DNA of 64,000 nucleotides from Bacteroidota bacterium (GTDB taxonomy: Bacteria; Bacteroidota; Ignavibacteria; SZUA-365). Of the stretch, positions 5,877-33,141 are shown one piece after another. The number at the start of each line of letters is the position of its first letter. The stretch's first letter is position 1. A model generated the notes under the pieces. That model saw only the letters and a list, made by a program, of their open reading frames with translations. It was not told where the DNA came from and searched no databases. The stretch spans positions 64,522 to 128,521 of the forward strand of contig JARYLZ010000001.1 in NCBI GenBank assembly GCA_029907355.1, written 5' to 3'. A program made the translations under genes and the position numbers.

Positions 5877-5879
5877 ACA

Positions 5880-8023: not shown

Positions 8024-8025
8024 TC

Positions 8026-13172: not shown

Positions 13173-13201
13173 AAAAAACCGGTCTGGAAGACCGGTTTTT
13201 T
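13173..13201. terminator. bidirectional rho-independent terminator hairpin
   Basis: The sequence AAAAAACCGGTCTGGAAGACCGGTTTTTT has a perfect 9-bp stem (AACCGGTCT/AGACCGGTT), a GGAA loop, and an A-run on one side with a T-run on the other. It lies 20 nt downstream of the stop of the 2127-aa gene on the minus strand. Confidence 0.65.
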
Positions 13202-13220
13202 CATCAGGGAATATGAAATA

Positions 13221-16200
13221 TTAACGTTTGATAATAGGTCGTGCGAGAACCCTTTCACCGACATAGAGATAGATAATGTAGAAACCACCGGGGACGTCAC
13301 CGATTCCGATTTGCTTGATATAGGGACCTTGTACCCTCTCTTCTTGAGATTCATGAACCGAACGCCCAAGCAAATCACTGACAATGAGACGCACTTTTGA
13401 AGGGAAAGGAAGCTGAATCTCTACTGTAAAGAGCCCTTCATTCGGGTCCGGATATACCGAAAATGACTCAATCCCCAAATTATTTTCGATGCTGGTGGCA
13501 CGAAATTCGAATGGGGCTGACATAGAGAAACAACTGTCCTCATTCCAAACGGCGACGGAGTATTGTCCGTTCCTGGTGGGATTGTGCGTCCTTTGTGTCG
13601 CTCCCGTAATCGGTGCACTGCTGAAATACCACTGATACCGATACGCAGGGGTTGAAATCAATGTGTTTCCTATCTGCGTGATGACCGGGGTGGGGGGGGT
13701 CGGTTTGACGCGGACTTCGACAACATCGGATTCACCCACGCAACCATACTGATTCGTCACACGAACGTTGTACAAACCGCTTTGGGAAACGGTTATCCGC
13801 CTCGTTCTAGCGCCGGTTGACCATAAGTATGATTGATATCCCGATCCGGCATCGAGTTCAACGCTTCCTCCATCACAGAAATTTAAGGGTCCACCGGCTT
13901 TTATTTGTGGAACAGGTGTTGAGTGTCGAGTTACTGTAATCGGGGTTGATGTACCTATACACCCATTCGCATTCGTCACCGTCACGGAATATGTGCCTGA
14001 GGTTTTCACGGTGATTTTCCTGGTAATGGCGCCGGTGGACCATAGATAGGTAGCATACCCCGCACCGGCGTCAAGAACGACACTGTCGCCGGGGCAGAAT
14101 GATGTGGGTCCGCTTGCAGAGATAACCGGCTGCGGTTTCGAATACACCGTTACGGAAACGGGGGCTGATGTCCCCTGGCATCCGTTCGCATCCCGAACGG
14201 TGACAAGGTAATTCCCCGCGGACTTGACGGTGATCACTCGCGTCGTCCGACCGTTCGACCATTGATATGACGAGTACCCTCCTCCTGCATCCAGTCTGAC
14301 ACTGTCACCCTGGCAAAACTCTGTGGGACCGAGGGGTGTAATATGAGGCATAGGGAGAGGATTTACCGTTACCGTAACGGGATTCGACCTACCAACGCAA
14401 CCGGAATCCGTCCATACTGCCACGTAATAGGACCCTCCTTGATTGACCTTTATTGTTCTGGTATTCGCGCCATTTGACCAAAGATAGCGTGCATAGCCGC
14501 CTCCGGCATCAAGGGTGACCTCGTTCCCCTCACAAAATCTCAATGGGCCGCTTGCCGTAATCCTCGGTGTGGGAATTGAGTTCACGGTAATGTGGATCGG
14601 CGGGGATGTCGCTGAACACCCGTTATCATCCATGACGGTCACCGTGTAATCGCCGGGTGATTTTACCGTGATAAATCTGCTCGTCGCCCCCGTAGACCAG
14701 AGATAACCACCATAGAGACCGTACTTGTCTGCATCGAGGACTATACTGTCACCCTCGCAAAAACTTACCGGTCCCTTGGCGGTGATGCGCGGTTGTGGGA
14801 GCGGGTACACTGTGACGGTATATGAGGGGGATGTTTTCCTGCATCCGTTATACCCTGTCACGGTCACGAAGTATGTCCCCGGTTTCGTCACCGTGATTCG
14901 CCGTCCCCCCATTCCGTTCGACCACAAAAAGCTATCCCCGTAAGAAGAATCCGCTTCGAACGTCACGCTCCCCCCCGCACAGAAAGTCAATGGACCACTG
15001 ACGTTGACATGTGCGCGTGGGAGTGGCATGACGACGACTCGAACGGCGGGGGATTCCCCTCTGCATCCCTGAAGTGTGTTGACGTGCACTTTGTAGAGAC
15101 CGGGTTCCCGCACGACGATACTCTGGCTCGTGTCGATGGCGATCGTGTCACGATACCACAGGTAACCGGAATAGAGACGTGCGGAATCGATTGAAAGAAC
15201 GACACTGTCGTATTCGCAGAAGGTCAGTGGTCCGCTCGCACGAATAATTGGCATGGGGGGCGCGATGACATCCACGCGGACATCGTCGGTTTCGACGCAC
15301 CCATTGGCGTCGGTGACGGTCAATGTATACGTGGTCGGGAAAAACGGTCGTGCCCATGTACGTGGTGCCGTCGAATCGCTCAGTCCGCCTACGGGACTCC
15401 ATTTATATGTATACGGTGGGGTGCCCCCTGTAGCATTTGATCCGATCTGCACGCTGTCGCCACGACATATGGAAATATCCCTCGTGTCTTTGAGGCGGGG
15501 CCACGGGAGAAGCGCGATGAAAACGCTGTCGACCGACTTGCATCCGTTGGCGTCTGTCACCGTGACATAGTACCTCGTGGGTTCCAGGGGGCGCACAAGG
15601 GGTCGTGCGACACGGTTGGAACCGACGAAGTATTTCAACGGTGTCCATTCATATTTGTACGGGGGTTTCCCCCCTGTTGCCGTATCACCGATCTGCGTTA
15701 ACTCGTTCCTGCATACAATCTGGTCCGTTCCAGCTTCCGCAACAGGAGGTTGATTGACAACCACCGTAATCGTGTCCGAGGCAGTACAACCTTTTAGGTT
15801 CTTCACGGTGAGAACATAAACGGTTGTGCTTTGTGGAGAAGCCTTGGGATTCATGATCGTAGGATCCGTCAATCCCGTTGACGGTTGCCAGAGATAGGTA
15901 AACGGCCCGGCTTGGTTGCTGCCGACAGTCGCGGAAAGTTGGATGGAATCGCCGAGGCAGATGGACCGGTCATCTCCAGCATGAACGGTGAAATCGACGA
16001 TGGAAATGGTTACCGAATCGATACCCGAACAGCCATAGGCGTCGCGGGCAACAACAGTGTACGTCGTCGTTACCTGCGGTTTGGCATAGGGCCGCGCGAT
16101 CAAAGGATCGCTGAGTCCCTGGGCAGGTGTCCAGAAATACGTGTAGGGTGGGGTCCCTCCGGTTGCCACCGAACCGATCTGAACGCTGTCGCCTGAGCAG

Positions 16201-19200
16201 ATGAGCGAATCGACACCAGCCGAGACGACCGGTGTATTTTCAACGTAAACAACTACGGTGTCGGAAACTGTATTCGATGCTGCATCCGTCACGGTGAGTA
16301 CATACGTACAAGTTGTCGTCGGCGAAGCGGTTGGACGCATGGCGGTCGTGTCGCTTAATCCGGTTGCAGGGAACCATCGAAACGAGTATGGTGGTATCCC
16401 GCACACCGCGGTGTCCCCGATAACATCGGAACTTCCTTTGCAGAGATGGATATCGGGTCCTGCGAGTGCCGTAAAGCTCGTGTAGACGGAAACGTTGACC
16501 TGATCGGTGTCGGAACACCCCTGGCTGTCACGGACGACCAGTGTGTATTTCGTAGTCGATAACGGGAACGCAAGGGGGCGGGCGACATTCGTTTGGCTTA
16601 ATCCAATGGCAGGTGACCATGTATACTGGAGTGGACCGATACCGAAATTGCCGCCTCCGCCGAGACGAACTGTATCACCGGCGCAAAGGACACGATCAGT
16701 CCCCGCGTCAGCGATGACACGGTTTACCATGACAAGAACGGAGTCCACGGTACTGCAGCCGTTTGCATCCGTTACGGTAACCGTGTACCTCGTGGAGACT
16801 GGCGGTGATGCGATCGTCACTGAGTCGGTCGTCGAACTGAGACCGCTCGGCGGATTCCACGCGTAAGTATAAGGTGGGGTACCCCCGCTTGCCGAATGGC
16901 CTATTGCGACACTGCCACCACGACAAATCATAGTATCCGGACCCGCATGGAGTATGGGAAGGGCGAACACGAAAACCGTTACGGAATCCGTGGCAGTGCA
17001 GTTGTATGCATCCGTAATGGTAAGATGATACGTCGTTGTCACCGCTGGGAATGCAAGGGGGGTTGCGGAGGTTGAATCGTCGAGCGTCGTGTTGGGCCTC
17101 CAGATATAACGCAGCGGTCTGGCTCCCCCAACGGCTTGACCACCGATGCGGACACCGGACCCACGACAAATCGCAGTGTCACGACCTGCATCCGCAAACA
17201 GCGGGGATGCGACATTTACCCGGACGGTATCGGAGACACCGTGGCAACCGATCCCGTCTGTCACTCTCACTGCATACGAACCGGTCGTGTCAACGGTAAT
17301 CGTTCTTGTGGTCTCGAGCGTTGACCAGAGATAACTGGTGTATCCCGGACCCGCATCCAGGACCACTCGTCCACCTGGACAGAGATTCGTCGGTCCGCTG
17401 GCGGTTATGAGCGGCTTTACATCGCAAATTTTCGTGATGAAACCATCCACGGTTCCACCGTTTACATTTTGGACTGCGGAAAGAACGGGGAAATCGGTGC
17501 TCGAGGTCCAGCCGCCGAAAACGACATTCCCACTGTATTGTGCCATGATCGCATTCGCAGCGTCATCGCCATTCCCGCCAAAAAAGGTGGACCAGATCCG
17601 CCCTCCCTGCGGATTGAACTTTACGATGAAAGCATCCGTCGATCCGTTTTTCGAAGGCTGGATGGCATCCTGTGTAACGGGAAAATTTGTACTCGCAGTT
17701 TGGCCTGTGAAAGCAATGTTGCCATGGAAATCCGTGCTTACCCCGCTCGCATACTCGTCCTGGTTCCCCCCGTAAAATGTTGCCCATTCCCGCGCACCTG
17801 TCGGACTGAAAACGCAGAGAAATGCTTCTTGACCACTCATCAGGTATGGACGGAACGCATTCGCCACAGGGAAATTCGCACTCTCCGTCCTCCCGACCAT
17901 GACGGGACGCTGGAACTTGTCGACGGCGAGCCCGTGTGCGATATCGAAGGCGCTTCCCCCGTAATACGTCGCCCAGAGACGAGTGCCGTCGGAAGCAAGT
18001 TTCACGAGGAATGCATCTCCCTGCCCGGCCTGGGTGTTCTGCAAACATCCTACAGACACCGGGAAATTCGTGCTGTTCGTGTTCCCTGCAAAGTACACGT
18101 TGCCGCTCGAATCACAGCCCACTGCCCGAGCGACATCTCCCATCATCCCTCCATAATATGTCGTCCAAATTTGCGTTCCCGTCCCGCTGAATTTGGCAAC
18201 GAATGCATCACCGACACCTGCGATCACGGTCTGGTAAGCCCCAGGAGTGACAGGGAAATTTGCGCTGGTCGTCACACCAGTTACCAGAATATTTCCACTC
18301 CGGTCCGTCGCCACCGCATACGCGTTGTCGTCGGCTCCGCCTCCCAGGTAAGTCGCCCACTGTAAAGACCCTAATGCATCGAAACACAAAAGGAAACCGT
18401 CATACATTCCCCCATTCTGTTCCTGGAATGCTCCCGCTGTTGTGGGGAATGATGTACTGTTCGTTTCACCTGCTACGATGATGTTCCCGTTCCCTGCCAC
18501 TGCAACCGACGTTGCGGCATCATTACCGGTTCCCCCGTAATAGGTTGCCCAGAGACGCGTTCCTGAAGAATTGAATTTCACGACGAAAGCATCAAGACTG
18601 CCAGCGTTTATGGATTGGACCGCACCCGCGGTGACCGGCAAATTCGTGCTGTATGTGAATCCGCATACAATGACGTTCCCTCCTGCGTCGGTTGTAACGG
18701 ATGTTATCCGATCGCCGTTCGAGCCGCCGTAATACGTCGACCAGTGAACGGTTGGGTCGATCACGAGAGGGAATCGTCCATCATAGGTACCAACGTCGAA
18801 ATGGATTTCTCTGCCATCCACACGGAAGGAGGAAGGGACCGTCGGCATACCGGAAGCGTAGGGAGAGGACAAATCGGGAGGTTGATAACAGAAAGGTCGT
18901 TCTTCTTTCAAGCATCCGAATGGATTCTCCACGATGAGATCCCTCTCTTCTCCGATAGATAGGGATTTTGCTCCCGCAACTCGAAGCTTGATATCCTCCG
19001 GGCGTCCACGAGGATGAACTACAAACTCATACTTGATTCCTGTATCGGTAATTCTAAAGATCAGGTCGATCCCCTCGTAGAGATTTTCATAAATGATGCA
19101 TCGGTATTCATGCGCCATGAGATTGAGAGCACCACCCCTATGGTACATGACCGGTGTTTCCACTTTGTCGACGCCTCGCACGGATACATCCTGGTTTGCA

Positions 19201-19604
19201 TCAACGAACTCGATATCCATCCTATATGATTCGCATGATTTCGCGAAGGAGTGACCATAGTCGGCCTTGGGTATCTCACCCGTTCCCTTTTCGAAGTTCG
19301 GTTTGAGAAAAACATAGCTGACATGCTTCCTCGTAAAGAAGAGACTCGTCGAACCGTAAGAGACCGTAAAGAGAACGTCTTCTTGAACGGAACCGTCTAC
19401 ATTGTAAATCTGACCTTTGTTCTCGACGAAACCTCTCACGGGATTCGAACTCATCCGCCTAATGAAAGCCTCCGGAAAAAGAACTTTTCCCGATGGATAA
19501 TCGACGGAGGACTTTTCGAAATTTCTCGCGATTGCGATCCGGTTAGCGGTTAGAAAAGTCCCGCTCATCAGTAGCACAGGAAAAATCGAGCGCAGGAAAT
19601 TCAT
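13221..19604 (-). CDS. giant T9SS cargo surface protein with SBBP beta-propeller repeats, SprB-type repeats and Ig-like repeats
   Basis: 2127-aa ORF with a signal peptide. Repeated GN..V.G.T.S.NFPV blocks are SBBP-type beta-propeller units. Repeated C.GDSV.IG..A.GGTPPYTY.W blocks are SprB-type. About 8 Ig-like units of roughly 78 aa (GP..FC.GDSV.LDAG.GY..YLWSTG...ITV...G.Y.V.V.D.NGC) follow. The C-terminal roughly 80 aa looks like a T9SS CTD. Confidence 0.9.
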   Translation of the reverse strand: MNFLRSIFPVLLMSGTFLTANRIAIARNFEKSSVDYPSGKVLFPEAFIRRMSSNPVRGFVENKGQIYNVDGSVQEDVLFTVSYGSTSLFFTRKHVSYVFLKPNFEKGTGEIPKADYGHSFAKSCESYRMDIEFVDANQDVSVRGVDKVETPVMYHRGGALNLMAHEYRCIIYENLYEGIDLIFRITDTGIKYEFVVHPRGRPEDIKLRVAGAKSLSIGEERDLIVENPFGCLKEERPFCYQPPDLSSPYASGMPTVPSSFRVDGREIHFDVGTYDGRFPLVIDPTVHWSTYYGGSNGDRITSVTTDAGGNVIVCGFTYSTNLPVTAGAVQSINAGSLDAFVVKFNSSGTRLWATYYGGTGNDAATSVAVAGNGNIIVAGETNSTSFPTTAGAFQEQNGGMYDGFLLCFDALGSLQWATYLGGGADDNAYAVATDRSGNILVTGVTTSANFPVTPGAYQTVIAGVGDAFVAKFSGTGTQIWTTYYGGMMGDVARAVGCDSSGNVYFAGNTNSTNFPVSVGCLQNTQAGQGDAFLVKLASDGTRLWATYYGGSAFDIAHGLAVDKFQRPVMVGRTESANFPVANAFRPYLMSGQEAFLCVFSPTGAREWATFYGGNQDEYASGVSTDFHGNIAFTGQTASTNFPVTQDAIQPSKNGSTDAFIVKFNPQGGRIWSTFFGGNGDDAANAIMAQYSGNVVFGGWTSSTDFPVLSAVQNVNGGTVDGFITKICDVKPLITASGPTNLCPGGRVVLDAGPGYTSYLWSTLETTRTITVDTTGSYAVRVTDGIGCHGVSDTVRVNVASPLFADAGRDTAICRGSGVRIGGQAVGGARPLRYIWRPNTTLDDSTSATPLAFPAVTTTYHLTITDAYNCTATDSVTVFVFALPILHAGPDTMICRGGSVAIGHSASGGTPPYTYAWNPPSGLSSTTDSVTIASPPVSTRYTVTVTDANGCSTVDSVLVMVNRVIADAGTDRVLCAGDTVRLGGGGNFGIGPLQYTWSPAIGLSQTNVARPLAFPLSTTKYTLVVRDSQGCSDTDQVNVSVYTSFTALAGPDIHLCKGSSDVIGDTAVCGIPPYSFRWFPATGLSDTTAMRPTASPTTTCTYVLTVTDAASNTVSDTVVVYVENTPVVSAGVDSLICSGDSVQIGSVATGGTPPYTYFWTPAQGLSDPLIARPYAKPQVTTTYTVVARDAYGCSGIDSVTISIVDFTVHAGDDRSICLGDSIQLSATVGSNQAGPFTYLWQPSTGLTDPTIMNPKASPQSTTVYVLTVKNLKGCTASDTITVVVNQPPVAEAGTDQIVCRNELTQIGDTATGGKPPYKYEWTPLKYFVGSNRVARPLVRPLEPTRYYVTVTDANGCKSVDSVFIALLPWPRLKDTRDISICRGDSVQIGSNATGGTPPYTYKWSPVGGLSDSTAPRTWARPFFPTTYTLTVTDANGCVETDDVRVDVIAPPMPIIRASGPLTFCEYDSVVLSIDSARLYSGYLWYRDTIAIDTSQSIVVREPGLYKVHVNTLQGCRGESPAVRVVVMPLPRAHVNVSGPLTFCAGGSVTFEADSSYGDSFLWSNGMGGRRITVTKPGTYFVTVTGYNGCRKTSPSYTVTVYPLPQPRITAKGPVSFCEGDSIVLDADKYGLYGGYLWSTGATSRFITVKSPGDYTVTVMDDNGCSATSPPIHITVNSIPTPRITASGPLRFCEGNEVTLDAGGGYARYLWSNGANTRTIKVNQGGSYYVAVWTDSGCVGRSNPVTVTVNPLPMPHITPLGPTEFCQGDSVRLDAGGGYSSYQWSNGRTTRVITVKSAGNYLVTVRDANGCQGTSAPVSVTVYSKPQPVISASGPTSFCPGDSVVLDAGAGYATYLWSTGAITRKITVKTSGTYSVTVTNANGCIGTSTPITVTRHSTPVPQIKAGGPLNFCDGGSVELDAGSGYQSYLWSTGARTRRITVSQSGLYNVRVTNQYGCVGESDVVEVRVKPTPPTPVITQIGNTLISTPAYRYQWYFSSAPITGATQRTHNPTRNGQYSVAVWNEDSCFSMSAPFEFRATSIENNLGIESFSVYPDPNEGLFTVEIQLPFPSKVRLIVSDLLGRSVHESQEERVQGPYIKQIGIGDVPGGFYIIYLYVGERVLARPIIKR
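13560..15260 (-). repeat. array of about 8 tandem Ig-like coding repeats (roughly 234 nt each) inside the 2127-aa gene
   Basis: The translated repeats are diverged at roughly 50-60% aa identity. Coordinates are approximate, derived from residue positions. Confidence 0.5.
15260..17450 (-). repeat. array of about 9 SprB-type coding repeats (roughly 85-100 aa each) inside the 2127-aa gene
   Basis: The recurring motif is AG.D..IC.G.SV.IG..A.GG.PPY.Y.W.P..GLSD. Boundaries are approximate. Confidence 0.45.
17450..18758 (-). repeat. SBBP-type beta-propeller coding repeats (about 7 blades) inside the 2127-aa gene
   Basis: The recurring motif is YYGG...D.A..V..D..GN....G.T.S.NFPVT.GA.Q. Boundaries are approximate. 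Confidence 0.45.
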
Positions 19605-20161: not shown

Positions 20162-23100
20162 ATGCGTTGTCGGGACATTCTCATAGAAATCTCTTTTCTC
20201 CTAATCTGTTTCGCCACGGATTCATTTACCCAAATCGGGATAGCGGTTCAAATCGATCCATCACCATCCCCGTATATCTCCGACTGGCGTTCGAATCCGA
20301 ACACGGTTCGATTCATCGTCACGAACCCGACTTCGATGACGTACGAAGTACGTTTCGTTGGGTACATAGAAGGCGAACGGCGAGGCCGAATTGCTGAAAC
20401 CAAAATTGATGCTGCAATCCAACCCGTTATTATTCCACCTGGTACGTCGAGTTTCAATGGTGTCGATGCCCACCTCGTAGAAGAAGGGGTGGTTCGATAC
20501 ATCGGTTCCTCTCGGGCAGAAACCGAGCGCACGGGTCGTATCCCCGAAGACAGGTACCGTCTTTGCATTGAGATTGTCTCCTATAAGAATCCTCAACAAA
20601 AATTGTCTCCTGAAACCTGCACCTCTTTTGAGATCAAGATACTATCGCCGCCCTCTCTTATCTCTCCCGCCGATAAAACCAGCATTACTCTTCTCCCGAC
20701 ATTTCAATGGTCTGCCGTGCCTATGGGCATCGGTGTCTTCGCTTCCTACGAACTTACCGTCGTGCGCCTCGAACAAGGGCAAATGAATGTTGCCCATGCA
20801 ATGGAAACGAATGTTCCTTTCCTCCAACGTGAAACGACACTGCCTCTCTATACCTGCCTGCCCTCAGACCCACAATTCACAGCAGGAACCTACGCTTGGC
20901 GGGTACGCGCTTTCGATCCCAACAATCGCTACACATTCAACAATCAGGGGAAGAGCGAAATTTGGTCCTTCACGTATCGCGAAGATGTTCGGATAACCGG
21001 GACCGTTCCGAGAAGACCTTCCCCTTCGGCTGGACTTGATTTATCGAGGCCGAATTTTCTCTATACCGGACTGACACGTATTCGGGGCACACTGAAGGTG
21101 ACATTCCTAAAGGGAATGATTCCGCCGCCGAAAAGTATCATCATCCCCCCACCGGGTAAGGGACAATTACCCCTGCCTGATCATCCGACCCAGCAACAGC
21201 TTCCTCAACAACAGACTCAACCACAAGCAGGCACTCTCCAAGCTCAAGGGGTTTCACTCGCCGCTTCCCTGAGTAAACCCGCACAAGCCCTCGGTGGATT
21301 ACATCTCAAGCTGTATAAGTGTTATCAACCACATCCCACGACAGGTTGCTTCGATCAGGCCAGCTTTACAGTCAACGGCAAATTATACATGGGAAAAACC
21401 CTCGTCGCAACGACGGTCACTCAGGAAGATGGTTCGTTCGAGTTCACGTTCTTCGCTTCCGATTCGACAGGTCGTGTTGCGAAAAATACTTCTATCCGAT
21501 GCGGCTCATCTACTTCGGAGTTTAGCAGTATCATCACGGGGGATTTCTATGGATTTTACACAATCGAAGTGACAGACCCTCATCTCTGTAGCCCATCCGA
21601 CCGCTTTATCGTCCAGCCGCTCGAGAACGCCGACGTCGGAACACTGTACTCCCTAGTCCGGTGGTACACCGTTACTATTCGTACGAACCACTACGAAGTG
21701 AAAGCGGGATCGGAATCCGTCATATATCCATTGAGCGGGATAAAAGTCCGTGTCATGCGCGTTTCTCGCCCGTACGATATCCCCTCGAATGAGGGAGAAA
21801 TTTCCGAGCCATTGATGGGCTCGATGACGGTCATCGCGGAGGGTATCACCAATGCCATGGGCGAGGTGTCTTTCAAGTATTTGGTGAAAAGCGTTGGGCC
21901 AAATGACCGATACCTCCTACGCGCGGAAACCGCCGAAGGCTCGGAATATTACTATTATAGCGCCTTTGAAAGCTTTAGGAATTCGTTCCTCTTGGACGAG
22001 AAGGACGACGCCGGCAATGGACTGTTTTTCGATTATGCGGTGCTAAACGAGGATTACGATCCCACAAAAATGAAAGCGACAGAGATCGTGCCAATGATCC
22101 CGAAGCCCCCGCGAATTCTCGGGAGCGTATATCGAAAAGACAATCCTAACTCCCCGGTTGCTGGTGCATGCATACTTCTCTACCGTACAGTAGGGACAAC
22201 CAGGTATGTGGAACGTATTCAATGGACCGACGCATCAGGCAAATTCTGTTTCGAAAATATCGAACCGGCACAGGATACATCGCACACGAGCGACGTGTAT
22301 TATCAACTGAAAATCATCAAATCTGGCTTCAAGGGATTACTGTTCCCAGAGCGAAAAGAGGACGCCTATCGTCCTACGATCGGAAGGCAAAAAATCACTC
22401 CGAAAATTCTCCTCGAACCGGATATGATCGTGAGCGGAAAAATCGTCGATGAATTAGGAAGACCTGTGAAAGCGTGGGTGCAAATTGATGATGGTGAAAA
22501 AGTGCATACCGTGACGAAATTCGTCCCGAAACGGATATCGTCTCAGCCTACCGATATGAACATAGATGACAATGGCATCGTGCGGTGTATACGGAAAATC
22601 CAGGGAACCCAGCAACAAGAACTGCACATCACATATACTGCACCGCGCGCTGCCCTCACTCAAAAATCAAGATTTCGGTTGACTGCTTCCGGCATACTCG
22701 TTGACACGGAAGAGGAATTCCGCTCCGCTTATGCCCCGCAACCGAATAAGGAAGCACGCGTGATTATCACGCCGGATGACCTCGCCACGTGGTTCCCTGA
22801 AACGTTGCGCGTTTGCTGCGGCGGTATGGCATATTTCGGGGAATTTGTCGTTTCCCTCAAACTCCGTCGTCTGGCAGTAGTGGCAGTCAAGATGCATTCA
22901 GAGCCGCCGACTCGGCAGCGTACGGAAGGGGGCCTCCAGACAGGCGGAGAACGCACGAGAACTAAGATCACCTCTCAATACATGCAGCAAATCACTAGCC
23001 AGACTATGGCCGGTGGCGGGTTACGCCAGGCTCTCCTGTTCACCGGTGGCGTGATGCAACTCATTCAGCCTGAACTGTTATTCCTTCCTACGGAGATCGT

Positions 23101-26035
23101 GAAGGATGCCGTCATCAGGGTCAACGGGATGGAACCGGACTCCATCGACAATGAGGGTGTACATTATTTCGCATGGCAATCTATAGGAGCGAACACGGAA
23201 ATCCATGTGGAAGGCCCGCCGGGCTCGAATTTCGTCCCGAGAGATATTACGGGGATTTCCACACCCGTCAGCCGCACATGGACACTCTACCCGGCACTTT
23301 TATCTCAGGGGGGAAAATTAGCCGGAACAGTTCGCGTGGGTAGCGTTCCAATCCCTAATGCACGTGTCATGCTCTTCGATAATCCATCCGATCCCACTCC
23401 ACTTCAGACAACAACAAACAGCGAAGGAAAATATGAACTTCCGGGTGTACCACTCGGTCTGCACACTTTCCGGGCGACGAAATCGAGCAGCCAATACATC
23501 GGTGACACAGTTTCCACCATCGTGAAAACGTCAGAAACCACGATGTTGGATTTCCAGCTTACCCTTTACAATGACATGGATATTACACATCTCCTCGGTT
23601 TTCCAATCGAGGTGAGCGCGTTGGACTCGTCAATGGGATCCATTCGGATTTCTGGGAATTTCTGCAATCTGCCGGCCAACGCCCATTTTTCTGTCGACAC
23701 AGCGAAGACGATCCTCCACTTCTCCGATATCGTGATCATACCTTCGACAGAAACGAATGTAAACGGTATCCCCCTTGCTCAGCCGTCGTCGATTCCACTG
23801 ATCACGGATGTCAACACGTTCGGAGTGAAAGCGTTTGGGCTCTTCAAGGCTAACCAATTCGACCCCATGAACGGGGTACGTGTTTCACTGGCAGAAGGAC
23901 GCGGAGAAATAACTGGCACTATCCGAATAGACCCGGCATCATTCACCGTCAGTCCCGGCTCGATTGATTTTGACCAGTCCTGGTTATACCTCGCTCCACC
24001 GCAACCGGAAGGGCCGCTCACACTCTCATCGATAACGTCCGATGCTTCGGTACCCCTTGCAATCCCCCATGGCTACCGTGTCGTGAATGAAAGTGGGCAA
24101 GGTCTCGAATATACTCTCTACGATTTCCCTGCACGTGGTGATCCTGTACTCTCATACCTTCTCGACGATACCCTTTCTCTGCGGACGACGGTCCACACGG
24201 ATATCATCGGAACGGTGAACCCTGATCTGGCAATCGATCTCGGTAACCTTCGAATTCACCATGCTTCTATCGAACCGATTTTATCGACAAAGGTTACGAC
24301 AATCGGTCTTGAGGGAGAATGGAAACTCATCGCGAAATCATGGCGGATAGACAATAATGGGTTTACACTTGACAGTGGTTACGTTGACACTGGGCCGATA
24401 TATATCCGATTTACTGGCATAAAAGTATTTCCCGATCACTTGGATTTCGGGGTATTCAATCTCACGGAACTCCCCCTAGCGGGGATTACCACGATGACGG
24501 TCACAGGGAAGGCTGTTTTCGGTATCGACGGCGGTGTGGGGAGCTGGGCACTGTCTGTCGTACCTCAGACGGGGGAAGATATTTGCGGCTGGGCGAATGC
24601 TCTCCCAGGAATGGCTTCCAACGACAAGATCCGATTCAATAATTTCTTTATCCGCGCGAATGACTCGAAAGGATTCACCCTAGCGGGAGGGAACCAAGTT
24701 ACCTTCCATAAGGTAGCGAAATGGAATCTCAACCATTTCTACGTCGCACCCAATCTCATTCAGTTGTCGGGCAATCTCGACCTCCAGATCCCGAATTTCC
24801 CCCCATTCAATTACCCGGTCTCCTACTCGATCATTGACAATGAATTGAAATGCGTGATTGTCCCGATCGATCAAACGATTGCCGTGAACGGCGTCGAGAT
24901 TGTATTCATCGCAAGCGGAACGAACCCGCAATACTGGGATAACACCGGTTTTCACAGCAGCGTTTACGTTCAGGAGCAAGGCGCCTTCCGCTTACGGAGC
25001 ATGCTTCACCGGACATTGCAGAAAACCAATATCATCGTCAACCAGGGCGAGGAAACATACATTGGGGACGATCACACGGCGAAATTCACGAACGTGACGG
25101 GGGAAATGCTCGTCGAAAATGACGAATGGACGCTGTTCTGGTATGAAGGCGACCTTCAGAATTCGAACCAAGGGGGTCGCATCCATTTCGTTGTCGAAGG
25201 GGAGATTGTCGCGAACAACCAAGAGATCGGTGTCGACAAAATCGAAACACCCTTCGGTGATATCCGCATCGTGTACAATTTCCAGAAGCAACGCCTCGAG
25301 GGGAATCTCGATATCGACTGCGACCTCGGGGGAACGAAAGTCAAAGGCGGCGGAAATCTTCTCATCAGCGGGACGGGCAAAGGATGGTACTTCCGATTCT
25401 ACATCACGTTCAAACTACCTACACCCACCGTTGAGGGTTCTGCAGTGTTCATTTGCGGGAATTGGCAGATGGAACAAGAGCAGTTGGATGATTTCGCACA
25501 ATATTCCTACAAGAACAAACCGCTCCCGGCACAGTTCCACAACCTCCGCGGTTTCTTTTTCGAAGGGACCGTTATGGTCCAGCCATCGGTTTTTTGCCCG
25601 AATTTCGAGTTCAACTTCATTCTCGTCTCTGCCTATATGGAATGCATGGTCGGTGCGAACGCTCGGTTCGGAATGAACTTCGGACCTGAGTATACAACCT
25701 TTTTCATCGCCATAAGAGGGATCATTCATCTCGAAGCCGGGGTTGGACTCTCCGTCGTTGTCTTCTGCGCAGGTTTAACCCTCGGCATCGACATCGAACC
25801 GAACATCGAAGGAGTTTTCCAAACAAATGGGGATTGGTACGTAAAAGGGCAACTGCCGATTATCATTTACGGATCATGCTACTGCGGAGGAGGTTTCTGT
25901 GACAGTCAATGCGAAGGAGATCTTTGCGTGAAGGAGGAGGCGAGCGGGAGTATCGAAATGGGCGCCGAAGCGTATTATGGTTCGAAGGATGGAAAGGATG
26001 AGCAATACTTTAAATTTTACTTCAAGAGCGAATAA
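20162..26035 (+). CDS. giant secreted hypothetical protein (1957 aa) with N-terminal two-domain module, Pro/Gln-rich linker, carboxypeptidase-regulatory-like beta-sandwich domains and Cys-rich C-terminus
   Basis: Signal peptide and strong RBS. Residues about 40-285 form a module that is duplicated in the downstream 314-aa gene. The linker reads PPPKSIIIPPPGKGQLPLPDHPTQQQLPQQQTQPQ. Segments such as GSVYRKDNPNSPVAGACILLYR...DASGKFCFENIEP and GTVRVGSVPIPNARVMLFDN...NSEGKYELPGVPLG look like CarboxypepD_reg-like folds. The C-terminus contains CYCGGGFCDSQCEGDLC. I see no T9SS CTD. Confidence 0.85.
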   Translation: MRCRDILIEISFLLICFATDSFTQIGIAVQIDPSPSPYISDWRSNPNTVRFIVTNPTSMTYEVRFVGYIEGERRGRIAETKIDAAIQPVIIPPGTSSFNGVDAHLVEEGVVRYIGSSRAETERTGRIPEDRYRLCIEIVSYKNPQQKLSPETCTSFEIKILSPPSLISPADKTSITLLPTFQWSAVPMGIGVFASYELTVVRLEQGQMNVAHAMETNVPFLQRETTLPLYTCLPSDPQFTAGTYAWRVRAFDPNNRYTFNNQGKSEIWSFTYREDVRITGTVPRRPSPSAGLDLSRPNFLYTGLTRIRGTLKVTFLKGMIPPPKSIIIPPPGKGQLPLPDHPTQQQLPQQQTQPQAGTLQAQGVSLAASLSKPAQALGGLHLKLYKCYQPHPTTGCFDQASFTVNGKLYMGKTLVATTVTQEDGSFEFTFFASDSTGRVAKNTSIRCGSSTSEFSSIITGDFYGFYTIEVTDPHLCSPSDRFIVQPLENADVGTLYSLVRWYTVTIRTNHYEVKAGSESVIYPLSGIKVRVMRVSRPYDIPSNEGEISEPLMGSMTVIAEGITNAMGEVSFKYLVKSVGPNDRYLLRAETAEGSEYYYYSAFESFRNSFLLDEKDDAGNGLFFDYAVLNEDYDPTKMKATEIVPMIPKPPRILGSVYRKDNPNSPVAGACILLYRTVGTTRYVERIQWTDASGKFCFENIEPAQDTSHTSDVYYQLKIIKSGFKGLLFPERKEDAYRPTIGRQKITPKILLEPDMIVSGKIVDELGRPVKAWVQIDDGEKVHTVTKFVPKRISSQPTDMNIDDNGIVRCIRKIQGTQQQELHITYTAPRAALTQKSRFRLTASGILVDTEEEFRSAYAPQPNKEARVIITPDDLATWFPETLRVCCGGMAYFGEFVVSLKLRRLAVVAVKMHSEPPTRQRTEGGLQTGGERTRTKITSQYMQQITSQTMAGGGLRQALLFTGGVMQLIQPELLFLPTEIVKDAVIRVNGMEPDSIDNEGVHYFAWQSIGANTEIHVEGPPGSNFVPRDITGISTPVSRTWTLYPALLSQGGKLAGTVRVGSVPIPNARVMLFDNPSDPTPLQTTTNSEGKYELPGVPLGLHTFRATKSSSQYIGDTVSTIVKTSETTMLDFQLTLYNDMDITHLLGFPIEVSALDSSMGSIRISGNFCNLPANAHFSVDTAKTILHFSDIVIIPSTETNVNGIPLAQPSSIPLITDVNTFGVKAFGLFKANQFDPMNGVRVSLAEGRGEITGTIRIDPASFTVSPGSIDFDQSWLYLAPPQPEGPLTLSSITSDASVPLAIPHGYRVVNESGQGLEYTLYDFPARGDPVLSYLLDDTLSLRTTVHTDIIGTVNPDLAIDLGNLRIHHASIEPILSTKVTTIGLEGEWKLIAKSWRIDNNGFTLDSGYVDTGPIYIRFTGIKVFPDHLDFGVFNLTELPLAGITTMTVTGKAVFGIDGGVGSWALSVVPQTGEDICGWANALPGMASNDKIRFNNFFIRANDSKGFTLAGGNQVTFHKVAKWNLNHFYVAPNLIQLSGNLDLQIPNFPPFNYPVSYSIIDNELKCVIVPIDQTIAVNGVEIVFIASGTNPQYWDNTGFHSSVYVQEQGAFRLRSMLHRTLQKTNIIVNQGEETYIGDDHTAKFTNVTGEMLVENDEWTLFWYEGDLQNSNQGGRIHFVVEGEIVANNQEIGVDKIETPFGDIRIVYNFQKQRLEGNLDIDCDLGGTKVKGGGNLLISGTGKGWYFRFYITFKLPTPTVEGSAVFICGNWQMEQEQLDDFAQYSYKNKPLPAQFHNLRGFFFEGTVMVQPSVFCPNFEFNFILVSAYMECMVGANARFGMNFGPEYTTFFIAIRGIIHLEAGVGLSVVVFCAGLTLGIDIEPNIEGVFQTNGDWYVKGQLPIIIYGSCYCGGGFCDSQCEGDLCVKEEASGSIEMGAEAYYGSKDGKDEQYFKFYFKSE

Positions 26036-26131
26036 CTTTCATCCCGGTTTATCTCGGGTATAGATCTTCCCATTCGCCGCGAACAGCACCCGCTTAACAT
26101 CACAAATGTTCAATACCTCACACAAGAAATA

Positions 26132-27076
26132 ATGGTTCTCAAGACAAGGCCGAAAAACATGAACCGACGCATCCACATCCTCACTGTCGTCAGCATTTGG
26201 TCTTTCGTCATTACAACGGCGTCCGCGCAGCTCTCTCTCGTCGTGCAATTCGAACCCTTACCCTCTCCTTATATCTCCGATTGGCGCTCCCACCCTAACA
26301 CGATCCGATTCATTCTCACAAACCCAACAGGCACACCTGTTACCGGTCGGCTCAAAGCTTATATCGAAGGCGATATCCGAGGTCGTGTGGCGGAAACCAA
26401 ACTCAACGCGAAGATTCAACCGATCACTGTACCACCGGGGACATCGACTTTCAATGCTGTTGATGCTCGATTCATCGAAGAAGGCGCGATCCGTTATATC
26501 GGACCGACGAAAGATGAAACGAAAAGAACAGGTCGATTACCAGAAGACCATTTTCGCATTTGTGCACAGTTTGTCGCGTACCATGATCCATATTCTCCGC
26601 TCTCGAACGAATCCTGCGCGACGTTCGAAATCCATTTCCTCCTTCCTCCCTCGTTGATCACTCCCAGCGACACAGCCATTGTTCAATCTCTTCCAGTTTT
26701 CCAATGGTCATTCGTTCCCCTTTTTATGGGTGAATTCACGAAATACGAATTGAAAATCGTTGAACTGGAACCCGGTCAAAAGAACCCGCAAGACGCGATT
26801 TTAACGAACATTCCTCTTCTCGTACGTGAAACAGATTTGCCGATGTACGCTTATCTCCCTTCCGATCCACCTCTTGAAAAAGGGAAAACATACGCTTGGC
26901 GGGTTCAAGCATTTCATCCTGACTCGAGATTTGTATTCGCGAAGAGAGGTCTCAGCGAAACGTGGAGTTTCACCTACATGCCCACCATTCCCCCGTCTAT
27001 CAAAACAGAAGAGCAAACTGGCGGAAATACAGGTACCTCTGATGAAATATGGGAAAGAAAGCGTCCTTCAAATTAA
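26132..27076 (+). CDS. secreted hypothetical protein, standalone paralogue of the N-terminal module of the 1957-aa protein
   Basis: Signal peptide (TTASAQ). It aligns to the giant protein over about 280 aa: PSPYISDWRS.PNT.RFI.TNPT, AETK..A.IQP...PPGTS.FN.VDA, RYIG......TGR.PED, P.FQWS.VP, YAWRV.AF.P, and ETWSFTY all match. The C-terminal half of the module looks FN3-like. Confidence 0.8.
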   Translation: MVLKTRPKNMNRRIHILTVVSIWSFVITTASAQLSLVVQFEPLPSPYISDWRSHPNTIRFILTNPTGTPVTGRLKAYIEGDIRGRVAETKLNAKIQPITVPPGTSTFNAVDARFIEEGAIRYIGPTKDETKRTGRLPEDHFRICAQFVAYHDPYSPLSNESCATFEIHFLLPPSLITPSDTAIVQSLPVFQWSFVPLFMGEFTKYELKIVELEPGQKNPQDAILTNIPLLVRETDLPMYAYLPSDPPLEKGKTYAWRVQAFHPDSRFVFAKRGLSETWSFTYMPTIPPSIKTEEQTGGNTGTSDEIWERKRPSN

Positions 27077-27306
27077 CGTCCTCAATGATTTCTCCTTTCT
27101 CTGGGCTCGAATCAATTTTTGCAGTCACGCTATCTAAAAGAAATCCATTTTAGGGTCCGCGAGTACCTATCGGTGCATGGAAGCGCATAGAATCCATTCA
27201 TGAATAGACAGTCCTCTCCATCCGATAATAGAAAGACATCATAGCAGGAATGAAAATCCGCTGGATTCAACTCGTATAGGTAAATAGAACTTCTCGAAAG
27301 AAACGG

Positions 27307-29391
27307 ATGATGCATATGTATCCCTCAGAGATTTTCCCATTCTTGCGAATGATACCAATGAAGTCGCTCCCCTTTCATTCAATGTGGACGATTCTCTTCA
27401 TTCTGGCAATGCAGGTTCCTATCACACAATGCCAGCAACGCAAATCTGTTCACGCGGGGCCCCAAGGCATCTGGGTTGATCTCGGCGAATACGTTCTGCC
27501 GGCACGCATCGAAGGTAATGCCTGCCAATTTTACATCGTCGAACGAAAGGCGATCGGCGAGAATAGATGGGAAACCGTAGCAAAAGTCCAGGGTCCGACG
27601 TCACAACACGAATTCGAGAAAGCAGTCCAAGCACAGACATATCGATTCCCCGAGTTGCGCACGCTAACAATACAGTACTCCGAAATCTGGAAATCGCTTG
27701 AAAAAAAGAGAACTATTTCCTCTATCGGATTCCTCGGCCAGTCGCTCCCTATCCAAGCAGCCCTTGGAACTCGGTGGTACGATACAACGGCGGAGAAAGG
27801 GAAGGTCTACCATTACCAGGTGAGCCGAGTTGCTGAAGACGGAATGACAACAGACCGCGTGACGAGCGAACCTATCTCATATCCCCAGCCTGCAGCGACA
27901 CCACGACTCCTCGTGTATCGTCATTACTCGGATGCGTCCGCCGTCAACGTCGTCTGGACACCCGGGAAACAAAAGAACATCGGATCGTTCAAAATATACA
28001 GGCGAGAAGGTGTCAGTGGCCCATTCGAACATTTGCCCGTCAATGTTAAGGACACCTGCTGCATTGTCAGCGCAGGATTCATGTCACGAGGGGACAGCCT
28101 TTTCTGCACGATCATCGACCGGACGATAAAAACTGGAACTGTTTATCAATACTACATTAAGCCGATGGACATCTTTCAGAACGCGGGGATGGAAAGCGAC
28201 ACCGCGACGGTTTACTCATTCGATATGATCCATGTCCCTTTGCCGCAACAATTCCACATCCGCTCGATCGATTCCGTCGGTATCCAGATACGCTGGACTC
28301 TTTATGATACTAGCGCTGTCCATGGAGTGATCATCGAGCGAAGCAGGGATTTCGACACTGGTTATGTAGAACTTTTCACTGCATCACCACGTGATACGGC
28401 ATTCACTGACATAACCGTTACCCCGATGGAGCGCTATTATTACCGCCTCAAGATAGTCGGACCGGGGGGAATCGTCTCAGGGCAGAGCGCAAAAATCATG
28501 GGACATTTCCGCAGCAATATTGAACCGACACCCCCTGAGGGTATCCGAGCGGAAGGTATCCACGGCGGAATCCGCGTCTCATGGTTCTCTGACACAGAAC
28601 AACTTCTCGAAGGGTATTACGTGTACCGCTCGGAAGGCTTGATTGATACCATGGTGCAAATCTCCACACTTTTGCCTCCCGGCACGACACAATTCCTCGA
28701 TACACTCGGCATGCAGGCAGGCCGTATATATGCCTACTGCCTTCGGAGTGTAAGCTCAAGTCATATTCCCAGCGTACCGTCGGACACAGTTACCGCCCAA
28801 CCAATCATACCCATGGGAGTCTCCACACCTATGGGACTTGCCGCATACGCGGACGAGCATGCCATTCACCTGACGTGGCAAGGACAGAAGGAACGCGATC
28901 CCTCGTTGGACGGTTTCCGTGTTTATCGCCGTGAAGGGACAAGCCGTTGGAAGACTTTAAATAGCACGCTTCTACCCCCTCAGCAAAACTTTTTCGACGA
29001 TAATACCGCTGAGCCTGGGAAGAAATATTTCTACGCGGTACAGGCTTATTCGGTCGAAGGCGATAGCAGTAGCTGGAGTATGATCGCGAGTACAATAATC
29101 CCACTGCCTCGCCTATATCCACCTGGGAACCTTACTGCGAAAGTCGAGAAGAACAATATTCGATTGTCTTGGGATGAAATTGTTCAACCGAATGCAACGG
29201 GATTCAAAGTATACAAGTACACTAGGGGTTCTAAACCACATCCTATAGCGACGCTTCCCTTAACCCAACGGGAGTACGTCGATATGAATCCTGGATCGGG
29301 ATCCCCCATTTTCTATTTCGTCACGACAATTGGGAAATACGACACGGAAAGCGCAGGTGGGAATGAAATTTCAATACGACGAATGCCGTGA
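27307..29391 (+). CDS. secreted protein with about 6-7 tandem FN3-like domains
   Basis: The probable start is the internal Met at about 27346 (MIPMKSLPFHSMWTILFILAMQVPITQC is a signal peptide). The recurring pattern is W......GF.VYR.EG......L and YYY..AV.-type beta-sandwich signatures. Confidence 0.8.
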   Translation: MMHMYPSEIFPFLRMIPMKSLPFHSMWTILFILAMQVPITQCQQRKSVHAGPQGIWVDLGEYVLPARIEGNACQFYIVERKAIGENRWETVAKVQGPTSQHEFEKAVQAQTYRFPELRTLTIQYSEIWKSLEKKRTISSIGFLGQSLPIQAALGTRWYDTTAEKGKVYHYQVSRVAEDGMTTDRVTSEPISYPQPAATPRLLVYRHYSDASAVNVVWTPGKQKNIGSFKIYRREGVSGPFEHLPVNVKDTCCIVSAGFMSRGDSLFCTIIDRTIKTGTVYQYYIKPMDIFQNAGMESDTATVYSFDMIHVPLPQQFHIRSIDSVGIQIRWTLYDTSAVHGVIIERSRDFDTGYVELFTASPRDTAFTDITVTPMERYYYRLKIVGPGGIVSGQSAKIMGHFRSNIEPTPPEGIRAEGIHGGIRVSWFSDTEQLLEGYYVYRSEGLIDTMVQISTLLPPGTTQFLDTLGMQAGRIYAYCLRSVSSSHIPSVPSDTVTAQPIIPMGVSTPMGLAAYADEHAIHLTWQGQKERDPSLDGFRVYRREGTSRWKTLNSTLLPPQQNFFDDNTAEPGKKYFYAVQAYSVEGDSSSWSMIASTIIPLPRLYPPGNLTAKVEKNNIRLSWDEIVQPNATGFKVYKYTRGSKPHPIATLPLTQREYVDMNPGSGSPIFYFVTTIGKYDTESAGGNEISIRRMP

Positions 29392-29438
29392 CATGCTGGA
29401 CGTCCAGGCGAGGGAGAGAACATGCTATCGCTAACTTT

Positions 29439-32400
29439 TCAATTGTGGATAAATTGGGAAACAGCGTCGGTAGTGAAATTCACTGCAACGATCTTCGAAA
29501 CGCCCTCTTCTTCCATGGTGACTCCATAGAGGGTATCCGCAGCCGCCATAGTTTTCTTATTGTGAGTGACGATGATGAATTGGATGTTATCGGAGAAAGA
29601 TCGAAGAATTCGGAGGAACCGGTCGATATTTGCATCATCGAGTGGAGCGTCAACTTCATCCAGGATACAAAAAGGGCTTGGTTTCACGAGGTAGATCGAA
29701 AAAAGCAAGGCGATGGCGGTGAGGGTTTTCTCGCCCTGAGAAAGCATCTCTATAGAATGAGGGCGCTTTCCGCTGGGTTTCGCGATGATATCTATTCGTG
29801 CTTCGAGGGGGTCTTCACCATCGGCGAGAATAATGTCCGCTTCGTCGCCCTTTTCGAAAAGTGATTGAAATACGTCAAAAAAGTTCTTTCGTATTTCGTT
29901 GAACGTTTCAAGAAATTTTGTTTTCGCCGTCTCATTGATTTCCTGAATTGTCTCCGTCAACGTTTGTCGTGACTCGATGATATCCTCACGTTGAGCGAGC
30001 AAGAGATCGAGGCGCTCTTTTTCCTTCCTCCATTCCTCAAAAGCGAGAGGATTCACAGGCCCGAGCGTTCGGATTTTCTCACGGAGCACATTGATCTCCT
30101 CCTTCGCTTGTGAAAGGTCGAAAACATCCTCCTCCCCGCTCAGGTCCTCCGTTTCGATTGACGATAATTCGAATTCATCCCGTGCTCTTTGTTCGAGCGT
30201 CGCCATTCGGTGGCGTATTTCTTCTATTTTAAGTTCGGTTTCGTGAACGATCGACGTCAAACGATTGAAATCCTGGCGAAGTCCGTGGAGAACATTTTCC
30301 CTCTCTTCGATCACGTGCCGCAGGTCGGATAGGGTCTTCTCGACGCTCCGGACCCTTTCCTCGGCGGAACGACGTTCTTCTTTCCATTGCTCAAGCGTCA
30401 ACTGAGTGGAAGTGCGCTCCTTGAGAAGCGCTTCGAGTAGCCGTCGGGCATCCACAATCTCTTGTTCGGTCTGGGTCACCAAACGATGCAGCTCGAGGAA
30501 AGAGTCTCGATAATGATCGCGTTGATTGAGAATGTTCTGGATTTCAGCCGATTTCCCCACACGCGCCAAGTGTTTGTCGTTTAGAGTAGTCATGCTCCGA
30601 GAATATTCCTCTTCGAGGCGATGCAATTCACATGACTCCATCTCGATTTCGATTTCCATGCTTTCCTTCTCTCGCTTGCAACGTTCGAGTGCCGGGAGTA
30701 GTGCACTGTGCTCTGCAACATCGCGTTGGTACTCCTCTATGAGAAGAGCTCGTTCATCGGTGATTTTTGAAAGAGTCCGAACATATTCATCTTCCTCGAA
30801 AATCATCTGGGCAGTGTGCTGTTCAAAGGTTGAGAGGTCTTGCTGGGACTGCTTCATGTTTTCGGCGTATTCTTTCAGGTCAATAGACTCGTATTCCTGA
30901 ACCTTTCTTTCCACCAACTGCTGATTTTTCACTAATGCTGCTTTCAACTCTTGAACTTCGCGTTCCAATCGAGAAATTTTTTCTTTCTTCCCGATGATTC
31001 CCACCTCCTCTTGGTTGTTACTACCGCCTCGAACTAATCCATTGCTATCGAAGAGATCACCATCAAGCGTTACACAACGGATGTCACGGTGTTCGCGCAT
31101 ACATCGATGGGCGGTTTCTGCGTCACGAACGATGAGAACATTCCGAAGGAGAAATTGAAAGAGGGGAAGGTATGTCGTCGGACACGAGATCAGATCGATC
31201 GCCCAGCCGAAGATCCCCTCTCCAGCAATTGAGAACGGAATGGCAACGCTTTCCGGTATCCGGGAGAGACATACGAAAGTCGCTCTTCCCTTCCGTTGAT
31301 CTTTGAGAAGGTATAGACCGGTAATGGCTTCTGCGATATCATGTACAACAATGTACTGCGCCGCCTCGGTAAGAGCCGCTTCGATTGCCGCACGATAGGT
31401 TTCCTTCGTATCGACTACATCGGCTACTGTCACGATATCTGTCACAGACCACTCACGGTTCTGAAGTAAATACTGGACGCTTTGCGGATACCCTTCAAAT
31501 CTACTCACGAGACCCGAAAGAAAATCCAACTGCGTCATTCGTTCCCCAATTTTACCCTGTAGATCGAACGAAATATTCTGCAAGCGGTCTATCTCGGCCC
31601 GCAGAGCTTGTTTCCTTTCTTCCATTTCATGGAATTTTTGCTCAGCACGTACAGCTGACTCGAGAATTCCGGATCTCTTTATTTTTTCTCTAGAAAGACG
31701 CTCACGAACAGTTTGAAGTGCGCTGGCTATACGGTTTTCATCCTCCGCAAGTTTCTCTAGGCGGTTTTTCGCCGCTTCCATACGAGTCGCGTATCGATCG
31801 ATTTCACTCTGGACCTGCGACAGCTTCTCATGCACTTGAAGAAGAAGACTTCGACGGCGATCGGCATCGAGTTTTTTTTGTGATACAACGCTTTCAAGAT
31901 CCGTGTGAATCGAGCGATGCTCCATTTCATCTCGCTCAATGATAGCAAGTTCATTCTCAAGCTTTTCCAACTCGATAACCGCTTGCGCCTCGTTTCTCTG
32001 CATCTCCTCAATCCGCCGAGTGTAGGACTCTTTTTCACCTTGAAGACGTTGGATCGTCTCAAGAATATTTCTTTCCCTCTCTGCATTAACTGCAAAATCT
32101 TGTTCACAATTCATGATTTTAGAGATCCAGAGAGCTAATTCGCCACGAGCCGAGTCCAACCGGTTCTCAATTTCCCGCTCGCTTACCCGATACGATTGAA
32201 GTTGTGCCTCTTCACGGATCACATTTTCTTCAATGGAGAAACGTAACATAGTATCAGCCTTCAAACGTTCCGCCAGTGGTCCAAGTCTCCCCGCCAGCGT
32301 TGTATAATCCCTTTTTATCACATCGATCTCAAGGGATCGAAGCCTTTCAATAAGATGATTATACCGTTCGGCCTTTTTGGATTGACGAATGAGAGAATTC

Positions 32401-33005: not shown

Positions 33006-33141
33006 GCGAACAGCGAGACAATTAATGAGTACAGGAAAGAGATCGTGTTTATTAAGATTCTGGAAAACAAGGGAATGGGACCATATATTGCATCGAGAAA
33101 GATAAATCTGGGAACGCGGATGAACACCCAAAAGATATTAT

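Follow-up and report, generated by a model that had tools for sequence, protein, structure and literature searches.

In the stretch of DNA considered here (hereafter the window), viz. 64,000 nucleotides (nt) of contig JARYLZ010000001.1 (positions 64,522 to 128,521) from the Bacteroidota metagenome-assembled genome (MAG) GCA_029907355.1 of the lineage Ignavibacteria, two adjacent genes encode secreted proteins which share a related N-terminal module of about 260 amino acids (aa). The first of these genes (20162..26035, + strand) encodes a giant protein of 1957 aa (NCBI MDH7514305.1, 'carboxypeptidase-like regulatory domain-containing protein'), and the second (26132..27076, + strand) encodes a small protein of 314 aa, as counted from the first ATG. 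The latter is identical to the 'hypothetical protein QHI48_00320' from the same MAG, for which NCBI places the start at M10 (position 26159), resulting in a length of 305 aa. The small protein is an old, intact and constrained paralogue of the N-terminal handle of the giant, and the chances appear slightly better than even that it is a cargo-less client of a barrel-linked system resembling that of the TANFOR domain proteins, and that it shares the partner of the giant.

Both proteins begin with N-termini which, as read from the sequence alone, resemble signal peptides (with the ends ASA, followed by Q, and SFT, followed by Q). In the giant, the signal peptide is followed by the module, a linker rich in P and Q, and a conserved body of ~1670 aa. 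The module consists of a TANFOR-like beta-sandwich (domain 1, aa ~24-157, 20231..20632, + strand), which carries a PSPYISDW motif and an invariant Cys pair, and an FN3-like beta-sandwich (domain 2, aa ~163-272, 20648..20977, + strand), the boundaries being carried over from the model of the small copy. The small protein shows the order signal peptide, module (domain 1 at aa 34-167 in the 314-aa numbering, 26231..26632; domain 2 at aa 173-282, 26648..26977; both + strand) and a disordered tail of 32 aa, YMPTIPPSIKTEEQTGGNTGTSDEIWERKRPSN (26978..27073, + strand), which is modelled with low confidence and is not followed by any cargo domain. This tail is similar to the beginning of the Y-(D/N)-P-x-x-P-P linker found after the module in giants. 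When aa 1-313 of the giant are compared with the small protein by BLASTP, residues 6-272 of the former align with residues 16-282 of the latter, with 146 identities in 268 positions (54%), 70% positives, 2 gaps and an E value of 7e-109, and a tblastn search of the whole window with the small protein recovers these two copies only, the next match having an E value of 0.67. The original prediction that the N-terminal module of the giant is duplicated as a standalone secreted protein about 6 kb downstream on the same strand is borne out by these results, as both open reading frames (ORFs) are as described, their starts lie 5970 nt apart, and the motifs on which the prediction was based (PSPYISDWRS, PPGTS, TGRxPED, FQWS, YAWRV and WSFTY) are all found in the alignment.

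The DNA identity of the two copies in a codon-based alignment is 59%, with 65, 76 and 36% identity at the first, second and third codon positions, respectively, from which it follows that the protein is under constraint, while its synonymous sites have nearly reached saturation. The identity of 70-75% predicted earlier for the cores holds for the most similar run of 30 codons (74%), but not for the copies overall; blastn reports between them one high-scoring segment pair (HSP) of 261 nt with 67% identity, and the longest exact word common to both is 14 nt. In a neighbour-joining tree of 26 modules, the two copies from the window were sisters in 0 of 300 bootstrap replicates; they differ from each other (49-54% identity) about as much as they do from the giants of other genomes, and the nearest relative of the small module is the giant of a locus from another genome (L030, 57% identity). 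As the deep ingroup nodes in this tree are weak, it should be interpreted only as showing that the copies are not sisters and that the duplication is old rather than a recent copy made in situ. Further, among the 39 columns which are conserved at 80% or more in 30 relatives, the small copy retains 36 and the giant 37, and a hidden Markov model (HMM) of the family scores both of them equally (E values of 3e-97 and 9e-97). The duplication itself is ordinary old paralogy, and ongoing gene conversion between the two copies is effectively excluded.

The fold of the module is indicated by an AlphaFold2 model of the small protein based on an alignment of 32 sequences. In this model, which has a predicted local distance difference test (pLDDT) score of 90.9 (>90 for domain 1), a signal helix is followed by two beta-sandwiches (~25-158 and ~164-273 in the 305-aa numbering) and the disordered tail. 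The FN3-like character proposed earlier for the second half of the module is supported by the beta-sandwiches in both halves and by a Foldseek comparison with PDB, where the matches are generic tandem FN3/Ig pairs only, with TM-scores of ~0.3. Among the residues that are invariant in the family are the Trp of PSPYISDW and, in domain 1, a pair of Cys at a distance of 18 residues; a disulfide between the latter would fit an extracytoplasmic location. Neither the small protein nor the module shows any significant match in Pfam and NCBIfam at the default thresholds. A word-indexed search with the small protein, which recovered only the protein itself and one relative with 33% identity, had suggested that the module is rare; however, this was overturned when 1.84 billion cluster representatives were searched exhaustively with a profile, which yielded 5385 matches with E<=1e-3, of which 348 reach E<=1e-30. 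Among the 150 best of these 5385 matches, about 143 have the module at residues ~5-280, just after the signal peptide, and the proteins carrying it range from 185 to 3891 aa in length, with diverse C-terminal regions comprising RTX repeats, SusE-like regions, DUF928, or nothing recognisable. It had been allowed in the earlier work that the module could turn out to be a ubiquitous generic domain found in unrelated contexts. It is indeed widespread and, as described below, related to a named domain, but the context in which it occurs is a specific one. In some other loci departures from the usual arrangement are seen: a protein of L027 (8390-11359) carries a second near-complete copy of the module at aa 657-906, two others (L058:10001-14131 and L076:9965-12988) contain 5-6 additional copies of its FN3-like half, and in L003 the module of a giant of 2881 aa is split over two ORFs (5704-6261 and 6295-14940), due to either a frameshift or an assembly error.

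The relationship of the module to TANFOR came to notice through a sub-threshold NCBIfam match to TIGR02542. The TANFOR domain, which corresponds to this NCBIfam entry ('T_forsyth_147'), was described by Jana, Salomon & Bosis in 2020 (Life Sci Alliance, PMC7073777) at the N-terminus of 339 large Bacteroidetes proteins that bear Sec signal peptides and have polymorphic C-terminal toxins, and it was proposed to be a delivery domain of the Bacteroidetes polymorphic toxins. In their work, short TANFOR-only proteins with separately encoded cargo are on record, in some cases the toxin comes from the gene that follows, and Fn3, PKD, SprB and type IX secretion system (T9SS) C-terminal domains are enriched near TANFOR genes. 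Of the family members described here, 18 out of 32 are matched by TIGR02542 in a colinear manner covering domain 1, the best E value being 7e-6; in P0011, aa 27-161 align with positions 3-144 of the 145 positions of the profile, and for the giant of the window aa 87-158 align with positions 77-144 (E 0.0021, 18 bits), whereas the small copy has no match at E<=10. However, the scores of all these proteins fall well short of the curated cut-off of 67 bits, the relatives that were scanned individually scoring 23.5 bits or less, and due to this the module is to be regarded as a distant relative of TANFOR and not as a certified member. Jana et al. (PMC7073777) recognised TANFOR by RPS-BLAST with the position-specific scoring matrix from CDD (E<1e-7, at least 90 aa aligned), for which the TIGR02542 HMM result is the nearest proxy here. 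Judged by the sequence comparisons, domain 1 of the module is a distant and divergent relative of TANFOR.

The position and surroundings of the module are also like those of TANFOR. Both copies start about 10 residues past the predicted cleavage site of the signal peptide, and in each case an FN3-like domain follows, as is often the case after TANFOR in large proteins with variable C-termini; short proteins consisting of the domain only are common to both, and the Fn3, SprB, PKD and T9SS C-terminal domains are represented nearby by an FN3-repeat protein encoded downstream of the giant, a divergently oriented upstream gene for a protein with SprB, PKD and Por_Secre_tail, and an S8 peptidase gene with Por_Secre_tail. 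Further similarities are seen in that portion of the supplement of PMC7073777 which lists cultured carriers with the same layout: in the loci of Leadbetterella byssophila (WP_013409685.1, 1961 aa) and Lewinella cohaerens (WP_020536064.1, 1955 aa), the TANFOR protein is accompanied by a domain-less signal-peptide protein of ~530-590 aa and an Fn3 protein of ~630-690 aa, the TANFOR protein of bacterium A37T11, with 2161 aa, contains a CarboxypepD_reg domain as well, and proteins of Tannerella forsythia are given with four tandem TANFOR domains. Apart from the low scores, the differences concern cargo and taxonomic range. In Pfam and NCBIfam searches the giant shows only CarboxypepD_reg-type domains and the small protein none; no toxin or immunity domain is found in the cluster, where the genes downstream of the giant are the small gene and the FN3 protein gene. 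The family also reaches beyond Bacteroidota, as 80 loci, all from MAGs, were recovered when 185,579 species genomes were scanned by means of the module alignment, these MAGs being labelled, among others, as Bacteroidota, Ignavibacteria, Zixibacteria, Calditrichia, Gemmatimonadota, Chlorobiota and WOR-3.

The small gene is located at a junction which in other genomes is tight. Over its full length, the body of the giant is 42% identical to P0008, a protein of 1963 aa, and it has many relatives, which are 1900-2260 aa long; both this body and its adjacency to the downstream FN3 gene are conserved across phyla. In the window, this FN3 gene (27307..29391, + strand) encodes a secreted FN3-repeat protein of 694 aa (FN3-694), homologues of which, with identities ranging from 50% down to 23%, neighbour the giant in at least 25 loci; the giant and FN3-694 are a conserved and tightly coupled pair. 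In five orthologous loci, the FN3 gene starts 2-13 nt past the stop codon of the giant, whereas in the window the gap is 1271 nt and holds the small gene, with spacers of 96 nt (26036..26131) before it and 230 nt (27077..27306) after it. A second module gene is absent from all eight complete orthologous giant loci (L002, L004, L005, L007, L010, L011, L014 and L030), and together with the short junctions this indicates that the small gene is a lineage-specific insertion; a constant pairing of a giant with a small copy, which had been raised earlier as a question, is contradicted by the same loci. One other standalone protein, P0166 (~316 aa), is 50% identical to the small protein and has the same apparent layout, its gene lying on a contig of 2811 bp (JGI sample 3300075153), 13 nt after a gene for at least 467 aa and 183 nt before another gene. 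An observation of a different kind concerns the C-terminus of the giants, which in the window (25900-26035) and in L004, L005 and L030 carries a conserved C-D-S-x-C-[ED]-G-x-L-C motif followed by YF+FYFK, the latter located at, or no more than 2 residues from, the end of the protein; these elements match no known family. In the giant of the window, the Cys-rich C-terminus ends with the residues YFKFYFKSE, and the CarboxypepD_reg domain of its body is found at aa 1053-1134.

The module genes are nearly always accompanied by a gene for a predicted outer-membrane barrel. Clustering of the ORFs of 81 loci identified an unannotated family of ~580 aa (hereafter C580), present in about 50 of them, which accompanies a module gene in 52 of the 57 loci with adequate flanks. 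In these 52 loci, the C580 gene is found immediately upstream of the module gene in 31 cases, after the FN3 gene in 20 and about 600 nt upstream in one (examples are L004:8177-9931, L005:8067-9878 and L001:3623-5308). The earlier suggestion that the module serves for anchoring or binding of a partner is supported by this context, as well as by its almost constant N-terminal position. C580 has no significant sequence match in Pfam, NCBIfam or PDB; however, its AlphaFold2 model (pLDDT 86.2) shows a signal peptide and a barrel of ~26 strands, without POTRA domains or a plug, and the best match of this model in PDB is the MtrB sheath (6r2q_B, E 1e-10, TMq 0.54), followed by the PapC/FimD usher pores (2vqi, 3rfz, 9bog) and SlpA, and lower down by LptD. 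There are also loci (L054, L065 and L067) in which a single barrel gene has two or three module genes after it. The clearest case of several clients for one barrel is L054 (2800-13696), where the barrel gene precedes three consecutive module genes (415, 1327 and 1231 aa), and in L065 it precedes module genes of 846 and 2683 aa. Barrel genes of this kind may also be present beside the published TANFOR genes, although PMC7073777 does not mention a barrel beside them. In a run of 18 consecutive entries of the TANFOR table of that paper, domain-less signal-peptide proteins of 528-593 aa are encoded 2-62 nt upstream in 10 cases and one further such protein is the second downstream gene, and these entries include giants of 1955-2161 aa followed by Fn3 proteins of 629-692 aa. 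Based on their size, position and lack of domains, the proteins of 528-593 aa in these entries are probably homologues of C580.

The arrangement may be compared with several known systems of the outer membrane. In two-partner secretion (type Vb), a TpsA exoprotein, which carries a TPS domain with a beta-helix fold, is exported by a TpsB transporter, a 16-strand Omp85 barrel with POTRA domains. The likeness to the present case is one of logic only: a domain of ~250-300 aa follows the signal peptide of very large proteins with variable C-termini, and an outer-membrane barrel of ~580 aa is encoded alongside. However, the module consists of two beta-sandwiches and not of a TPS beta-helix, and C580, with ~26 strands, no POTRA and no ShlB/Omp85 match in Pfam, differs from the type Vb transporters. 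Ushers pass subunits with Ig folds, and the lumen of MtrB and of LptD is occupied by a partner protein. It is the barrels of these proteins that the C580 model matches best in structure, but the TM-scores are moderate, there is no sequence similarity to C580, and the module contains no haem motifs. For the ushers, the similarity is at the level of the barrel fold only (TMq 0.29-0.43); C580 consists of the barrel alone, whereas the ushers of the chaperone-usher pathway have a plug and N- and C-terminal domains in addition to their 24 strands and are accompanied by the gene for a periplasmic chaperone, and no conserved chaperone-like neighbour was seen in the clustering of the 81 loci. With the cargo proteins of T9SS, the module proteins share the organisms and the vicinity, since genes for a T9SS-type adhesin and a protease adjoin the cluster. 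However, the conserved element of the module proteins is N-terminal, and a search which detects Por_Secre_tail in two neighbouring genes revealed neither this nor another C-terminal sorting domain in the giant and the small protein; ten other module proteins, when scanned for a T9SS sorting domain, showed none either.

Based on these observations, we propose that the module of ~260 aa would be the family-defining N-terminal handle of a large class of secreted proteins of the Fibrobacterota-Chlorobiota-Bacteroidota (FCB) group, whose C-terminal bodies would be interchangeable. The handle probably couples these proteins to the dedicated C580 barrel normally encoded beside them, and the FN3-repeat protein of ~690 aa would be an accessory for the subclass of giants of ~1900 aa. 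The gene of the small protein, in which the signal peptide, the module and the start of the linker form a handle only, has been inserted into the giant/FN3 junction, and the protein is most likely a functional client without cargo, which would engage the partner of the giant, be it the barrel that the MAG encodes elsewhere (QHI48_03585), the FN3 protein, or both. If it does so, its role would be that of a plug, a place-holder, a competitor or an adaptor rather than that of a recombination cassette; the small gene is presumably expressed, and its product may have one of the roles suggested earlier (cap, competitor, assembly chaperone or docking subunit). A broader form of this proposal, which we put forward tentatively and to which we assign less than an even chance, is that the TANFOR-type modules in general are the address or anchor for an undescribed route of outer-membrane export or display in the FCB group, which proceeds via C580 and not via T9SS, with the FN3 protein of ~690 aa as an accessory for the giants and the module-only proteins as regulatory or structural occupants of the barrel.

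Several observations weigh against this interpretation of the small protein. C580 is absent from the window, and also from all three giant cassettes (L003, L012 and L030) of the closest genome, CAYLZD01. However, the MAG from which the window derives encodes a C580 protein elsewhere (P0205 = QHI48_03585), and the coupling, if it is real, works in trans in this case. The physical coupling of module and barrel is presumed from their genomic linkage. A second module gene is lacking from the orthologous loci, as noted above, P0166 is the only similar standalone case, and a scan of metagenomes with the small protein yielded nothing above 31% identity and no close orthologue. Further, the spacer at 26036-26131 contains no terminator- or promoter-like site above chance, although the sigma-70 promoter and terminator scan, being at chance level, is uninformative for this phylum. 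Lastly, the conservation of the small copy could predate a recent truncation, having accrued while it was the head of a full-length giant.

This last point leads to the alternative that survives best, viz. that a second, divergent giant of the TANFOR type has lost its body by deletion and that the small gene is the stump left of its 5' end, without a function and with an ORF that is open only because the event is recent. The small gene ends inside the linker which follows the module in giants, its module is closest to that of a giant from another genome, and its absence from close orthologous loci and the lack of close orthologues in metagenomes would also be expected for such a remnant. In addition, several giant paralogues can be present in one genome, as in the case of CAYLZD01, and module genes occur in tandem in L065 and L054, so that the small gene could have arisen from a giant in tandem. 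However, the ORF is intact and has its own signal peptide, nearly all of the conserved columns and a confident predicted fold; no remnant of the giant body or of the conserved 3' end of the giants was detected in the spacers flanking the small gene, inclusive of that of 230 nt; P0166 shows the same apparent layout; and the published TANFOR proteins repeatedly include forms that are short or consist of the module only (PMC7073777). On balance, we consider that the small gene is unlikely to be a stump. It is somewhat less likely again that the small protein is an adaptor by which a cargo from another gene is taken along the TANFOR route, in the way suggested for those TANFOR proteins that have their toxin in the next gene; the lack of a cargo of its own would be in accordance with this, but the next gene codes for FN3-694, which accompanies the giant as its conserved partner in at least 25 loci without any small gene and hence is not a private cargo, and the cluster is devoid of toxin and immunity domains. 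The original prediction had also named the small copy as a possible donor for recombinational exchange. Although the copies are homologous and lie 6 kb apart on the same strand, a role of the small copy as a silent cassette, from which the N-terminus of the giant would be exchanged by recombination or varied antigenically, is very unlikely because of the low nucleotide identity with third positions near saturation, the shortness of the longest common word, the single HSP and the lack of a sister relationship or any phylogenetic trace of conversion, while a silent cassette would require neither the start codon nor the signal peptide with which the small gene is equipped, and the N-terminal handle is the conserved and not the variable part of these proteins.

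The duplication is of interest in a wider context, as its analysis identifies the module as a divergent and far more widespread relative of TANFOR and shows that the pairing of the module genes with the gene for a large unannotated barrel is almost constant. The export of TANFOR proteins by T9SS was put forward in PMC7073777 as a speculation which was untested there, and a literature search found no later paper resolving their export route. The barrel linkage provides a testable alternative to this hypothesis for the surface delivery of TANFOR-type toxins and giant surface proteins, as well as a rationale for module proteins that lack cargo.

Among the other genes of the window, the divergently oriented gene upstream of the giant (13221..19604, - strand) encodes a T9SS-type adhesin of 2127 aa with DUF7948, SBBP, PKD, SprB repeats and Por_Secre_tail, which is syntenic in the closest relative (L030) with 57% identity, and the S8 peptidase with the T9SS sorting domain (Por_Secre_tail) is encoded at 9310-12336 (- strand). 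The presence of this adhesin and the S8 peptidase near the giant matches the published enrichment of T9SS cargo beside TANFOR genes (PMC7073777). An ORF of 158 aa downstream of the FN3 gene (29388-29864, + strand) was considered as a member of the cluster, but was rejected as it is antisense to the 3' end of an SMC gene (29439-33131, - strand); it has no family matches and is probably not a gene. Further downstream, the GC content between positions 32000 and 40000 is 0.36-0.42, compared with ~0.50-0.57 elsewhere in the window. This stretch covers genes for a GH2-like protein of 882 aa, YidC and a protein of 547 aa without Pfam matches, with a sugar transferase gene (40649-42058) located just past it, and it may represent an acquired or compositionally unusual region.

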